This document shows, piece by piece, positions 59,250 to 62,739 of a stretch of DNA of 64,000 bases. Every line of letters starts with the position of its first letter. Position 1 is the stretch's first letter. The position numbers and the translations under genes were made by a program. This DNA is from an uncultured Candidatus Saccharibacteria bacterium (GTDB taxonomy: Bacteria; Patescibacteriota; Minisyncoccia; Phycocordibacterales; UBA9973): assembly GCA_964474435.1 (NCBI GenBank), contig CAYYSI010000001.1:62647-126646 (forward strand). Direction: 5' to 3'. The notes beneath the pieces were generated by a model. The model made no database searches. It saw only the letters and a program-made list of their open reading frames with translations, and was not told the origin of the DNA.

Positions 59250-59675
59250 ATGCAAAAAACAGAACTACAAGCTTCTGCTCCTACTCCCGCAAAAACATTG
59301 AAGAAAAAGCATTTTTTCTATAAACAATGCCTCACTTTTGGATATCTCGTATTCTTTTTTCTTGTCGAATGGTATTTATTCAAAGACGCTTCTTTGTGGG
59401 TACAAAACTCTTTGTACTTCATAACATTTGGTATCTTTTGTATTCGGATAAAGGGTATACGCCATGATCAATGGAAATACCTCAATCCCGGACACTTTGA
59501 AAAAGTCCAATCAAAGACCATGCAAGGGACTCTCCAATATCTTGCAATGAAAGAACAACAAGACAAACAAAAAGCAGAAGAAGAAATGCGAAAGGCACAG
59601 ACAAAAAAAGTAGCAGTAGAAATGCCCGCCGAGCCAGAACTTGCTGAAGTAAATTCAGCCGCTCTCCTTAACTAA
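59250..59675 (+). CDS. hypothetical membrane protein (141 aa)
   Basis: Promoter TTGACA-N17-TAATAT at 59187-59215. Two TM helices and a KQ-rich C-terminus. Confidence 0.4.
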   Translation: MQKTELQASAPTPAKTLKKKHFFYKQCLTFGYLVFFFLVEWYLFKDASLWVQNSLYFITFGIFCIRIKGIRHDQWKYLNPGHFEKVQSKTMQGTLQYLAMKEQQDKQKAEEEMRKAQTKKVAVEMPAEPELAEVNSAALLN

Positions 59676-59736
59676 AATATTCATCATTAGAGCCGCGCTA
59701 TCCAATAGTGCGGTTTTCATTTGCTACAATAACCCT

Positions 59737-59982
59737 ATGCACCAAAAACTATGGTTCAAGAGGAAGTCATATGGATGGGGATGGGTACCTGTAACATGGC
59801 AGGGGTGGATAGCTACAGCAGTTTATATTGCTGGAGTATTACTTTTCGCATTTGGAAGAGGAGAAGATAGCAATCTGCTTATATTTGCAGTCCCCACGAT
59901 CATGTGGACCGCGCTCCTGATCTATATTTGTTACAAGAAAGGTGAGAAGCCGAGGTGGCAGTGGGTGAGGGATCGTGAGTAA
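59737..59982 (+). CDS. hypothetical small membrane protein (81 aa), Trp-rich
   Basis: GWGWVPVTWQGW, with two TM helices. Confidence 0.4.
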   Translation: MHQKLWFKRKSYGWGWVPVTWQGWIATAVYIAGVLLFAFGRGEDSNLLIFAVPTIMWTALLIYICYKKGEKPRWQWVRDRE

Positions 59983-60055
59983 GTTTTGACAATTTGGGTA
60001 TTGATGCTATAGTTGTAAGGAATCCTCTTTTACTCACCTCCAAAAACTGTGTACC

Positions 60056-60388
60056 ATGACAAAGACTGTATTATTTCTACTCGGCTCAAATCTAAACCTC
60101 ATTCGGTATCAAAAAATCTCAGAGAAACTTAAAAGAAAAGATATTGTAGTTTCTACTGAAATTATCGAAAAAAGCTCTGAAGATGCTGTAGAAAATGAAC
60201 GTCACTATGTTGGAAATAGCCTTATGCGTCCAAATCAAATCATTTTTTACGAGCAGGGCTATAGATGGTTTGGTCTTGAAAATTCACATTGCGGCATGCA
60301 CACCCTTAGCAAGAAAACATCAGCTGGTTTTATCATTACTAAAACAAATATGATACCACAAAAGACAGCTGAAGCTTCTGCCGCTTAA
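60056..60388 (+). CDS. hypothetical protein (110 aa)
   Basis: No motif. Confidence 0.35.
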   Translation: MTKTVLFLLGSNLNLIRYQKISEKLKRKDIVVSTEIIEKSSEDAVENERHYVGNSLMRPNQIIFYEQGYRWFGLENSHCGMHTLSKKTSAGFIITKTNMIPQKTAEASAA

Positions 60389-60434
60389 ACAACGGTTAAA
60401 ACCCTATTCTTTATACAGAGAATAGGGTTTTTAT

Positions 60435-60566
60435 GTGCACGGTAGAGGGATCTCCCGCGACTCTCAGACGTTGTCTTCGGTCTGGGCACCGCCTCGCGGC
60501 CTGCGGCAACGCTCCGGCGTTCTCTCCCTCACGCATGCAAAGCAGTTTGCATGCTTACCGTGCACC
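60435..60566. other. GC-rich, highly structured ~130-nt element adjacent to tRNA-Val. It begins with an 18-nt direct repeat of the tRNA-Val 3' end and is closed by a 10-bp inverted repeat.
   Basis: GTGCACGGTAGAGGGATC at 60436-60453 equals 60608-60625, the 3' part of tRNA-Val. TGTGCACGGTA at 60435-60445 pairs with TACCGTGCAC at 60555-60564. Internal hairpins include GCATGCAAA-gcag-TTTGCATGC (a perfect 9-bp stem at 60532-60553), AACGC-cggag-GCGTT and CCGC-ctc-GCGG. Confidence 0.4.
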
Positions 60567-60608
60567 CAATAAAAATGGCCTGTATGAACAGGCTCGTTTT
60601 TAAAGGGG

Positions 60609-60682
60609 TGCACGGTAGAGGGATCGAACCTCTCACCTCAGCAATGTCAATGCTGCGCTCTAACCATATGAGCTAACCGCGC
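60609..60682 (-). tRNA. tRNA-Val (anticodon GAC)
   Basis: The reverse complement GCGCGGTTAGCTCATATGGTTAGAGCGCAGCATTGACATTGCTGAGGTGAGAGGTTCGATCCCTCTACCGTGCA folds as a cloverleaf with anticodon loop TTGACAT. Confidence 0.8.
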
Positions 60683-61350: not shown

Positions 61351-61425
61351 GGCCCTATCGTCTAACGGTTAGGACGCCGGCTTTTCAAGCCGTTAATCGG
61401 GGTTCGATTCCCCGTAGGGTCACCA
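61351..61425 (+). tRNA. tRNA-Glu (anticodon UUC), CCA encoded
   Basis: GGCCCTATCGTCTAACGGTTAGGACGCCGGCTTTTCAAGCCGTTAATCGGGGTTCGATTCCCCGTAGGGTCACCA; anticodon loop TTTTCAA; T-loop TTCGATT. Confidence 0.9.
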
Positions 61426-61429
61426 CGAC

Positions 61430-61460
61430 AAAACATCCCCATCTGCATGGGGTGTTTTGC
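61430..61460. terminator. hairpin CCCCAT-ctgc-ATGGGG with flanking A/T runs (bidirectional terminator after tRNA-Glu)
   Basis: AAAACATCCCCATCTGCATGGGGTGTTTTGC. Confidence 0.6.
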
Positions 61461-61617
61461 TACGTGGTGAAGGCGTAAGCGATGTCGAAGACAAGCGCGC
61501 CGGGGTCGCGAGTACTTAGTCCACGCAGTGCACGAAGTGCATGAGTAGACTTAGTAACTCGTGACACAAACAAATCGCAGTCCCTGGAAGGGGGTCACAA
61601 ATACAAATAAAAAAACC
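61461..61617. ncRNA. candidate structured ncRNA: GC-rich ~155-nt non-coding island bounded by terminator-like hairpins
   Basis: It has no ORF and its GC content is well above that of the flanks. Local hairpins include TGCAC-gaa-GTGCA and CACGCAGTG, a closing pairing CGCGAGT...ACTCGTG, and a CCCTGGAAGGGGG hairpin. Strand and identity are unknown. Confidence 0.25.
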
Positions 61618-61682
61618 TTAGAAAATATCTAAGGTTTCAAAGGTGTGTCGTCCTGTAAAAATACTATTAAATAAAAAACTAA

Positions 61683-61750
61683 AAAGGGTGCCCTAATGCA
61701 TATGAGTCCCTTGCCTTCATATCCTTAGAAGGAACACCCTTTCTTTTATC
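61683..61750 (-). terminator. trxB terminator: long hairpin AAAGGGTG...CACCCTTT with internal CCTTC/GAAGG helix, followed by a T-run on the minus strand
   Basis: On the minus strand, the 8-bp closing stem plus inner stem is followed by TTTTTAGTTTTTTATTT. Confidence 0.5.
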
Positions 61751-61797
61751 CTGTATAAACCTAATGACACTTTAGCACCCTTTACAAATTTGTCAAA

Positions 61798-62739
61798 CTA
61801 TTTACCAGTTTTTAACCAAACGTACAAGTCCTCGATAGCTTTGACAGCATCACCAGCTGCGATGTTGTTTTGGTGGTAGAGACCATTGGTGCAATCACCA
61901 GCTGCCCAGATGCCGAGTTGTTTGGTGCGTTGGTTTATTGGGTCGACGAATATTTTGCCGTCTTGGGTGGGTGGCACGAGGTCTTTGACGAATGCAGTGG
62001 CAGGGATCTGGCCGATCTCGACAAAGAGTCCACTGATAGGGAGCTCTGTTGGTTCTGCAGCGTCTTTTTCGCGGTATACGACAGACGAGACAAATTTGTC
62101 ACCTTTGATTTCCATAAGCTCGATATTTTTCAAAAGGGTGACATTTGGAAGTTTGGAGACATTGTCGACTGTGATTTGGTCAGCACGATATGAGTCGCTG
62201 CGATGGAGGAGAGTGACGTGTGAGGCATACTGTGAGAGCTGCAAAACTGCCTCAAGCGCCGCGTTTCCGCCTCCTGCTACAGCAACGGGCATGCCGCTAA
62301 AGAGTGGGCCGTCACAGGTCGCACAGTACATGATGCCTTTGTGATCAAATTTGTCTGCGCCCAGGACTTCGAGTTTGCGGTGACTTGAGCCAGTAGCTAT
62401 GAGGACACTCTTTGAAGTGATCGTCTCTGTTTCGCCATCGATCGTTGTGACAAATGCATCAGTTACATCTTTGGTAATATTTGAAACTCGTTTGCCAAGC
62501 TTGAGTGTGAGTGTGTGTTCAGGCTTTGCGTATTCTTCGATATGAGTTTTCAGGTTCTTTGCGAGGTCAGAGCCGCTGATTGATGGAGTACCGATCCAGT
62601 TGAAAATAGTGTCAGAGACTGATGACTGACCACCAACTTCTTCTGCGATGAGAAGGGTAGTGATGCGCTTGCGTGCGGCATAGACTGCCGCCGCACATGC
62701 TGCTGGGCCTCCACCGATGATGACGAGTTCGTATTGCAT
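61798..62739 (-). CDS. trxB: thioredoxin-disulfide reductase
   Basis: FAD motif IIGGGPAACAAAVYAAR, redox-active CATCDG and the NADPH motif GGGNAALEAV are present. Confidence 0.9.
   Translation of the reverse strand: MQYELVIIGGGPAACAAAVYAARKRITTLLIAEEVGGQSSVSDTIFNWIGTPSISGSDLAKNLKTHIEEYAKPEHTLTLKLGKRVSNITKDVTDAFVTTIDGETETITSKSVLIATGSSHRKLEVLGADKFDHKGIMYCATCDGPLFSGMPVAVAGGGNAALEAVLQLSQYASHVTLLHRSDSYRADQITVDNVSKLPNVTLLKNIELMEIKGDKFVSSVVYREKDAAEPTELPISGLFVEIGQIPATAFVKDLVPPTQDGKIFVDPINQRTKQLGIWAAGDCTNGLYHQNNIAAGDAVKAIEDLYVWLKTGK

Follow-up and report, generated by a model that had tools for sequence, protein, structure and literature searches.

Why is the tail of a tRNA gene repeated a short distance beyond that gene, around a segment that is rich in G+C and folds well? 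The question is raised by a tRNA-Val(GAC) locus in a 64,000-nucleotide (nt) stretch of DNA, referred to here as the window, from contig CAYYSI010000001.1 of an uncultured Candidatus Saccharibacteria bacterium. An initial annotation had noted the repeat and interpreted the segment as the remnant of an integrase island or as the att site of an excised element. Here we report that the segment, termed the tRNA-Val element below, belongs to a family of at least about 150 copies in Patescibacteria genomes and metagenomes, each 100-190 nt long, which share a covarying core and carry an inverted copy of the host tRNA tail that integrase recombination leaves unexplained; an island remnant or an att site left by excision is therefore not supported, whereas the earlier suggestion of a structured RNA in the segment is borne out by an RNA-like element that is conserved. 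As an overall description we put forward an insertion-derived, structured RNA of the tRNA strand with a tRNA-specific antisense arm, for and against which we consider the balance to be about even; we infer both its function and its mode of spread.

The 18-mer, GTGCACGGTAGAGGGATC on the plus strand, is present in exactly two copies in the window with two mismatches allowed (60435-60452 and 60608-60625), and none of 100 dinucleotide-preserving shuffles of the sequence gave any match to it, so that the repeat is real. ARAGORN and Rfam both place the tRNA-Val(GAC) on the minus strand, running from 60682 to 60607. The second copy of the 18-mer thus lies beyond the tRNA 3' end, as had been stated, and on the tRNA's own strand; the strand that the initial annotation implied was the wrong one. 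In the orientation of the tRNA its sequence is GATCCCTCTACCGTGCAC, which corresponds to tRNA nt G57-C74 and comprises the 3' part of the T loop, the 3' strands of the T stem and of the acceptor stem, the discriminator and one trailer base (+1). The segment between the copies is indeed GC-rich and well folded: G+C is 0.64 at 60450-60549, compared to 0.24-0.45 in the surroundings, and the predicted folding energy of the interval is -63.2 kcal/mol on the minus strand (z = -3.7) and -62.5 kcal/mol on the plus strand (z = -4.9). The 10-bp closing stem described earlier is also present (GTGCACGGTA / TACCGTGCAC). Over 1687 nt, among them the whole element, the window shows 100% identity to an independent Logan assembly of another read set (SRR26856460, locus L212), which excludes an assembly artefact.

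The window comes from a patescibacterial genome of Paceibacteria/Nomurabacteria-like type. For comparison, 212 loci were fetched (L numbers below), of which 80 were anchored on the neighboring thioredoxin reductase gene (TrxB). The TrxB-anchored loci contain GC-rich blocks behind tRNA-Ser(CGA), tRNA-Glu(TTC) or tRNA-Val(GAC), and these blocks have in common the motifs GAAAG-NCGGAG...CGAG-NCGGGGTCGCG...YGTGAC, after which the tail of the host tRNA is repeated. A covariance model, R1, was built from seven copies and, in the window together with the TrxB-anchored loci, identified 26 copies. A pattern scan of JGI/ENA metagenome contigs yielded at least 120 loci, and R1, when run on the first 100 of these, identified 123 further copies. 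According to the matches listed, 88 of the 123 copies (72%) are located no more than 120 nt 3' of a tRNA on the same strand, compared to 3.6% by chance, and the hosts among these matches span about 35 anticodons and 18 amino acids in addition to transfer-messenger RNA (tmRNA). At least four copies follow tmRNA genes, three of them identified by ARAGORN and one, in L170, by Rfam. Five of the 123 copies stand behind another copy and five are truncated at contig ends. The host tRNA of one element (L171 986-1221, minus strand) is interrupted by a group I intron (Rfam 79.6 bits).

Several loci illustrate the range of placements. Elements with a tmRNA (ssrA) host are found at L141 1385-1513, L148 867-999 and L170 475-601, and also in L161 and L208; in these tmRNA-linked members X', the inverted copy of the host tail, matches the tmRNA 3' end, and X2, the direct copy beyond the core, has shrunk to about 8 nt. 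Locus L189 (1-5628) carries five family copies behind different tRNAs in a 5.6-kb tRNA cluster, which suggests that a large share of the tRNA genes is occupied in some genomes. There are also orphan copies with no tRNA upstream (L134 504-760 on the minus strand, L183 170-367, L165 5650-5848 and L107 2127-2330 on the minus strand). The sequence upstream of these orphans is conserved (...CACGCACGCGGAGCGTGCGAATCAGTCCGGTT...AGGTTCGAGC); it had no match in Rfam, and joining it to X2 in silico yields no tRNA.

The core adopts a fold that is conserved across the family. In an alignment of 123 sequences, 93% of cells form standard pairs, compared to 32-39% when the partners are slid by 1-3 columns. 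Changes on both sides are present in 26 of the 29 pairs (831 cells), and none of 500 shuffles reached the observed values; the alignment was fitted to the model, which inflates the pairing counts, and the margin is large. The closing helix P1 has a median length of 15 bp and encloses a three-way junction from which two hairpins, P2 and P3, emanate, with tips that vary in length and sequence among copies. A G.U pair in P3 is preserved in 116 of 122 sequences. Because this pair would be an A.C mismatch on the opposite strand, the fold can be assigned to the tRNA strand. A further hairpin, P0, with a CUGC loop and the consensus ..AACUGCUU.., is optional and present in about 25% of copies, compared to 5% in controls; it usually separates the acceptor part of X' from the T part, and in other copies the motif forms a hairpin right after the tRNA.

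Within P2 and within long P3 tips one module is found repeatedly, GA-[2-4 bp stem]-GACG (or GAA) loop-[stem]-GA, in which tandem sheared G.A pairs would surround a short capped stem. Examples are in L107, L128, L148 and the window (60489-60519). These GA-stem-GACG-stem-GA modules look like protein-binding sites. The module resembles a K-loop. We rejected a K-turn for the internal loop of P2, which has the G.A/A.G pairs but a bulge of only 1 nt rather than 3.

The flanks of the core are specific to each host. Compared with its own tRNA, X2 shows an exact run with a median of 15 nt starting from C56, whereas the corresponding value against the tRNAs of other copies is 5 nt (n = 93). The junction of X2 lies between tRNA nt 55 and 56 in the canonical form and between 56 and 57 in the subtype found in the window, and the length of the duplication varies from 6 to 30 nt. 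Identity between X1, the tail within the tRNA, and X2 often extends into the non-functional trailer, for up to 29 nt, from which it follows that the duplication was made at the DNA level. Over 19 nt, X1 and X2 are the same in 31 of 59 copies. In the other 28, X' pairs better with the tail of its own tRNA in 22 cases and with X2 in four, with median pairing energies of -23.7 kcal/mol for X' with the tRNA tail and -15.5 kcal/mol for X' with X2. This preference indicates that complementarity to the actual tRNA is maintained in X', whereas X2 decays.

The tRNA-Val element follows the same plan. On the tRNA strand the order is tRNA (with X1), hairpin, X' with P0 inside it, the three-way-junction core (P2 and P3') and X2; there are thus three copies of the tRNA tail, one direct within the tRNA (X1), one inverted (X') and one direct (X2), and the junction is situated between X' and X2. 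All features named in this paragraph are on the minus strand unless stated otherwise. The host tRNA-Val(GAC) at 60607-60682 is intact, without an encoded CCA (ARAGORN; Rfam tRNA 60.5 bits), and X1, the first 18-mer copy inside it, occupies 60608-60625 (nt G57-C74). The tRNA trailer (60568-60606) contains a terminator-like hairpin, a stem-loop at 60578-60595 with an A-run before and a T-run after it, the stem of which differs from its counterpart in L001 by compensatory changes that keep it paired. At 40 nt past the tRNA the element begins with the acceptor part of X' (60556-60567), GGGTGCACGGTA, which is the exact reverse complement of TACCGTGCACCC, a sequence made up of the acceptor 3' strand of the tRNA, the discriminator and the first trailer bases (CCC). 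X1, the trailer hairpin and this part of X' form one long near-palindrome, TACCGTGCACCC ... GGGTGCACGGTA. The acceptor part of X' agrees better with X1 and its trailer than with X2, having the CCC trailer of X1 and not the ATA after X2. Next come the P0 hairpin, AGCATGCAAACTGCTTTGCATGCG, with its CUGC loop (60532-60555), in which the changes from L001 are again compensatory, and the T part of X' with the junction, TGAGGGAGAGAA (60520-60531), in which GAGGGA pairs with TCCCTC of X2 and GAGAA is a degenerate complement of the T loop. Accordingly GGGTGCACGGTA and GAGGGA together are complementary to TACCGTGCACCC and TCCCTC. P2 (60489-60519) is the family-wide stem with the conserved tandem G.A internal loop, CGCC-GGAG-[variable hairpin]-CGAG-GGCG, here CGCCGGAG...CGAGGCGG with the GGAG / CGAG loop and a variable hairpin. 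P3' (60453-60488) has the form GCCCAGAC-[variable hairpin]-GTCGCGGG(AG). X2 (60435-60452), the 3' strand of P1, is identical to tRNA-Val nt 57-74 at 18 of 18 positions and is probably the original tRNA tail, displaced by the insertion. A bidirectional terminator-like hairpin at 60394-60432 ends both the element on the minus strand and an open reading frame (ORF, 60056-60388) on the plus strand.

The tRNA-Val element lacks the canonical P3 (GGGGUCGCG ... YGUGAC) and has GCCCAGAC...GUCGCGGG in its place, and its R1 score is only 19.3 bits (E = 0.018). Given the replaced P3 and the low score, we classify it as a subtype, A2, rather than as the canonical form. This subtype has a P3' of the type GGUGCCCAGNC-[hairpin]-GNCGNGGG(A/C)G directly before X2, with unchanged junction topology, as observed in the tRNA-Val element. 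The P3' of the window (GGUGCCCAGAC...GUCGCGGGAG) recurs behind tRNA-Arg(TCT) in L200, and when the copies from the window, L001 and L200 are aligned, they fold into the same three-way junction; eight of its pairs differ at both positions. A second model, R2, seeded with these three copies, matched non-seed copies in L186 (tRNA-Ser, 84 bits), L155 (tRNA-Glu, 84 bits) and L120 (76.7 bits); the first two share the P3' motif of A2, and L120 is a more divergent variant. The hosts of A2 are thus tRNA-Ser, tRNA-Glu, tRNA-Arg and tRNA-Val, and P3' shows a compensatory change between A-U and C-G. Judged from these comparisons of sequence, the tRNA-Val element is a divergent subtype with at least five other members, and not a wreck. 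At least two further core types, B and C, occur behind tRNAs within the X'...X2 frame, and some of their copies stand in tandem with the main type. Type B is marked by GTACTG and a CCTGTAAGG hairpin, type C by GAACCGTAGGTGCC...AGGAGCGAGAGCGACT. Loci with other cores are found at tRNA-Val in L002 (7166-7290), L019 (9490-9650) and L003 (7150-7180), and elsewhere in L042 (9635-9900), L070 (7900-8039), L049 (11290-11460) and L095 (100-320).

A second, canonical member of the family is located about 800 bp from the tRNA-Val element and shares its layout, so that two of the five tRNAs of the window carry an element; neither this sister nor X' had been part of the initial annotation. The sister follows tRNA-Glu(TTC) (61351-61425, plus strand; ARAGORN and Rfam) at 61426-61598 on the plus strand (R1 58 bits, E = 7e-14). 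It consists of a hairpin (61428-61460), a short X', CGTGGTGA (61463-61470), which is the complement of TCACCACG at the tRNA end, P2 (61471-61501), P3 (61502-61565) and, at its end, a T-arm-like remnant with a final GGGTCAC (61573-61598). The T-arm-like hairpin and GGGTCAC show compensatory change relative to L210. The copy behind tRNA-Glu is also kept in L014, L021, L039, L055, L056, L080 and L210, among genomes of only 53-72% TrxB identity. Its retention, together with the compensatory changes, suggests that it is under purifying selection.

How did such elements come to lie behind so many tRNAs? We consider it probable that they arise by insertion with copying of the target, at the T loop or at the 3' end of a tRNA. 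The reasons are empty sites, alternative occupants, remnants, tandem arrays and duplicated trailer bases. The orthologous tRNA-Val site is empty and has a plain terminator in L210/L211, L004, L009 and L021; L210/L211 are 72% identical in nucleotide sequence to the window at this locus, and the trailer of L210 is similar to the sequence after X2 of the window, its trailer and terminator resembling the hairpin at 60394-60432. Behind tRNA-Val in L001 is the subtype of the window with a third, partial copy of the tail; in L002 and L019 a different core, type C, is followed by CGATCCCTCTACCGTGCAC; and L003 contains a 28-nt remnant and a copy of the tail. The comparison of tRNA-Val loci among relatives that had been proposed earlier therefore returned empty sites, the same subtype, other cores and a remnant, and it upholds the claim that a tRNA 3' segment was duplicated around inserted DNA. 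Tandem units are present in L081, L090, L042 and L095. Compact cores of 64 nt that are 88-92% identical are found behind different tRNAs in unrelated contexts, each with flanks matched to its host. An insertion by copying would keep the tRNA intact (X1), make an inverted copy (X') and leave the original tail, with its trailer, at the other end of the insert (X2). As a speculation, the order X1-X'-X2 could result from hairpin-primed synthesis or from template switching at two natural palindromes, those of the T arm and of the terminator hairpin.

The same order can be read differently. A resident, non-mobile module of the 3' trailer that acts in cis, serving as a processing stem, a fail-safe terminator or insulator, or a stabilizer, might have formed at each tRNA by local duplication and inversion, with the palindromic T arm and the terminator hairpin as points of template switching, and then have been inherited vertically. 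The X1-X'-X2 order would correspond to the duplication/inverted-triplication pattern of template switching, X' follows the tRNA tail and trailer, the hairpin stems are preserved by compensatory changes, the tRNA-Glu copy is conserved at one tRNA across distant relatives, and copies within a contig are as diverged as copies from different contigs. On the other hand, independent local duplications cannot yield one core hundreds of times, and the 64-nt cores mentioned above are nearly the same behind different tRNAs while their flanks match each host. Patchiness among close relatives, differing core types at one site, remnants and tandem arrays likewise speak against this explanation, which we regard as rather unlikely.

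Integrase recombination calls for a separate assessment, since the repeats at the two ends could be attL/attR-type repeats of elements whose tyrosine integrases use T loops, with the interval as a decayed island or as a miniature mobilized in trans (CIME-like). Direct repeats of the tRNA 3' segment are present at both ends, the repeat starts in the T loop and passes the tRNA end, tmRNA genes are used too, several unrelated inserts share one site, and the serial occupancy and tandem arrays resemble those of Dehalococcoides ssrA islands, which have serial direct repeats (PMC3146451). Yet neither the neighborhood of the element in the window nor the inspected loci contain an integrase, and the inserts measure only 100-190 bp, the interval in the window being 155 bp without coding capacity. 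The conserved core covaries and has strand-specific G.U pairs, the host-matched X' has no role in integrase recombination, and one integrase family would not be expected to retarget about 35 tRNA species in addition to tmRNA. Viral sequences gave equally little: of nine pattern matches in 2.9 million viral contigs one was true, on a contig that bears bacterial housekeeping genes, and blastn against 50,697 phage records returned no match. We accordingly rejected a phage or plasmid origin, and we consider an integrase explanation improbable. A miniature inverted-repeat transposable element (MITE) or another transposase-derived element was rejected as well, the ends being host-specific and the duplication 6-30 nt long, with no family-wide terminal inverted repeats or fixed target duplication; the 212 loci examined contain no autonomous copy.

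A Pfam scan of the neighboring genes found no integrase or other mobility gene near the element, in agreement with what had been noted earlier. The neighbors encode TsaD, a pterin dehydratase, a VTT-domain protein, a short-chain dehydrogenase, TrxB and four small hypothetical proteins; the four small ORFs had no Pfam domain and no homologues in related loci. Three of the small ORFs lie at 59250-60388 on the plus strand (141, 81 and 110 aa), and their sole homologue in the fetched related loci is a 41-aa match of the 81-aa ORF in L095. These ORFs had been proposed as cargo remnants. They are positioned outside the segment bounded by the repeat and, with no Pfam domain and no such conservation among relatives, are not supported as cargo. 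The DNA past the tRNA-Val tail varies among relatives. In relatives, tRNA-Ser(CGA) stands beside the TrxB gene in a Ser-Glu-Val cluster (L001 7071-7158), whereas the window (61600-61800 compared) has the Glu and Val tRNAs but no tRNA-Ser(CGA) anywhere in its 64 kb.

The fold itself might be used as a single-stranded DNA recombination site, like attC or the attP hairpin of CTX phage, the element then being a DNA cassette. The hairpin tips conserve structure more than sequence, and DNA hairpins tolerate G.T wobble; in a single-stranded circle the long palindromes X1-hairpin-X' and X'-core-X2 could fold into a dumbbell, and tandem arrays would result from rolling-circle copying. Against such a use stand the high G+C in an AT-rich genome, the tandem G.A loops and the GNRA-like tips, all typical of RNA, as well as a placement that is invariably on the transcribed strand and directly after a highly expressed gene, and the lack of an associated recombinase or HUH (rolling-circle endonuclease) gene. 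We deem a DNA cassette highly improbable.

Is the segment nothing more than a chance repeat, a fragment of a tRNA-Val pseudogene or a 56-aa ORF (60433-60603, plus strand)? The ORF does span the interval, and the far end of the interval is derived from a tRNA. The repeat is absent from shuffles, though, and the only tRNA called by ARAGORN or by Rfam (RF00005) is the one at 60607-60682, with nothing at 60435-60570 even at E <= 10. The only "homologue" of the ORF is a nucleotide-level match in L001 with differing hairpin lengths; the ORF is not conserved as a protein, and we rejected a small protein. The family-wide evidence further contradicts an absence of function, the probability of which we consider close to nil. 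ARAGORN calls no tmRNA, permuted tmRNA or intron-bearing tRNA in the interval. The element cannot be assigned to a known RNA gene through Rfam 15 either, which had been suggested as an alternative: at gathering scores there was no match to an element in the window and 24 related loci, and at E <= 1-10 there was none on the tRNA-Val element and six strong family members. The Rfam scans returned only tRNAs, tmRNAs and the one group I intron. Full-text searches of the published literature found no description of such elements, and, judged by Rfam 15 and the literature that could be searched, the family is thus apparently undescribed.

Returning to the description of the elements as structured RNAs of the tRNA strand, we propose that the element would be transcribed by read-through from the tRNA; the signs of a putative stable small RNA are indirect, namely the strand-specific G.U pairs and the high G+C. 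In the precursor, X' would have two possible partners: the tail of the tRNA with its trailer, which it would clamp in a long duplex, or X2, with which it would close the junction. The RNA would act on its own (pre-)tRNA, in processing, in quality control or as a decoy, and the tandem-G.A junction would serve as a platform for a protein. That the antisense arm of a read-through RNA addresses its own (pre-)tRNA is plausible from the sequence relationships, although we would stop short of calling it probable. A hairpin with a T-run precedes the core in only 38 of the 88 tRNA-linked copies, and the spacer can be as short as 0-9 nt.

A more specific version would make the element a programmable guide RNA for its own tRNA, within a ribonucleoprotein acting on the pre-tRNA or on the tRNA gene. 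X' would then be a guide of about 20 nt, complementary to the 3' half of the tRNA and the trailer, and the three-way junction with its GA-stem-GACG-stem-GA motifs would be the scaffold for a putative protein. On a pre-tRNA this could amount to RNA-guided 3'-end processing, quality control or sequestration; on a tRNA gene, the element would direct its own insertion by RNA-guided homing to T loops of tRNAs, and X2 would be the target that was displaced. If true, the elements would constitute a new class of RNA-guided system in minimal-genome bacteria. We regard a guide function as unlikely.

Several observations weigh against the description that we prefer. The tRNA-Val element itself scores poorly with R1, as given above. 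In 43% of copies, the tRNA-Val element included, a terminator-like hairpin before X' would limit read-through. Covariation in P1 may reflect copying of the tRNA rather than selected pairing, and because both strands of P1 are copies of the tRNA it is not independent evidence. With respect to movement, copies from one contig resemble each other no more than copies from different contigs do, the median being 0.40 in both cases; there is thus no sign of recent bursts, long residence is equally compatible with the data, and we rejected recent transposition. The cores do not cluster by host tRNA, which is weak evidence for movement, because the compact cores are short and strongly constrained. Finally, no partner protein, enzyme or autonomous element was found among the neighbors, which are housekeeping or hypothetical genes.

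If the proposed description is correct, an abundant class of structured RNA elements has been hidden behind many tRNA and tmRNA genes of Patescibacteria, the very small bacteria of the candidate phyla radiation, whose genomes rank among the smallest and most streamlined that are known. For annotation, the GC-rich blocks are currently left without any label, and the duplicated tRNA tails can be mistaken for the att sites of islands. For RNA biology, the family would add a new, well-supported structure, in which a three-way junction is combined with tandem G.A modules and a mimic of a minihelix, and a natural case of tRNA-specific antisense pairing within the transcript of the tRNA itself. The junction at nt 55/56, the inverted and direct copies of the target and the retargeting among about 35 tRNA species would then point to a mechanism of insertion or guiding that is used by no described element.

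T-loop islands and prophages are among the closest known systems. Work by Williams from 2002 in NAR reportedly described T-loop integration of tyrosine integrases at tRNA and tmRNA genes. The elements share with such islands a direct repeat that runs from the T loop to beyond the 3' end, an intact tRNA, the use of tmRNA and serial or tandem occupancy. They differ in having no integrase, a size of only 100-190 bp, a covarying RNA-like core, an inverted copy of the tail and about 35 host tRNA species. Bacteria also contain structured miniature repeats, such as Correia/CREE, REP/BIME, ERIC, RPE and RUP, which similarly are small, non-coding, numerous in a genome, foldable as RNA if co-transcribed and patchy among relatives. 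In those repeats the terminal inverted repeats are fixed, the target duplications are short and likewise fixed, and many kinds of site are used; the ends of the elements described here, in contrast, copy the host tRNA, their duplication of 6-30 nt starts from a fixed tRNA position, and they are placed only at tRNA and tmRNA 3' ends.

Dicistronic tRNA-snoRNA genes, functional 3' external spacers of tRNAs and the tRNA-scaffold principle offer a second kind of precedent, that of a structured RNA made from the 3' trailer of a tRNA and possibly released by tRNA-processing enzymes, and the closing helix of the elements imitates an acceptor/T-arm minihelix. These systems have neither an antisense copy of the tRNA nor a duplication of its tail, and to our knowledge no multi-copy family of them is known from bacteria. 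The TIGR-Tas tigRNAs and the bridge RNAs of IS110, which are guides for both DNA strands (PMC12045711), are likewise short structured RNAs with target-matched segments in a conserved scaffold; box C/D-like G.A motifs and a frequent occurrence in Patescibacteria and phages are further similarities. TIGR-Tas arrays, which Patescibacteria carry too, are built from units of another structure and lie next to a Tas gene (PMC12045711). A TIGR array or an IS110 bridge RNA was therefore rejected as an identity of the elements, which have no adjacent gene for Tas (Nop-domain) or for the IS110 (DEDD) recombinase, no arrays of 36-nt units and a different architecture: X' and X2 complement each other, not adjacent target segments, and the loop is GGAG/CGAG, not box C/D. 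There is also a likeness in shape to tRNA-like small RNAs, namely YrlA/Y RNA, the tRNA-like domain of tmRNA and viral tRNA-like structures, the paired ends of which resemble an acceptor and T arm. The elements differ from these in having no T loop and no Rfam match, and the tRNA that their ends mimic is the neighboring one, copied down to its trailer bases.

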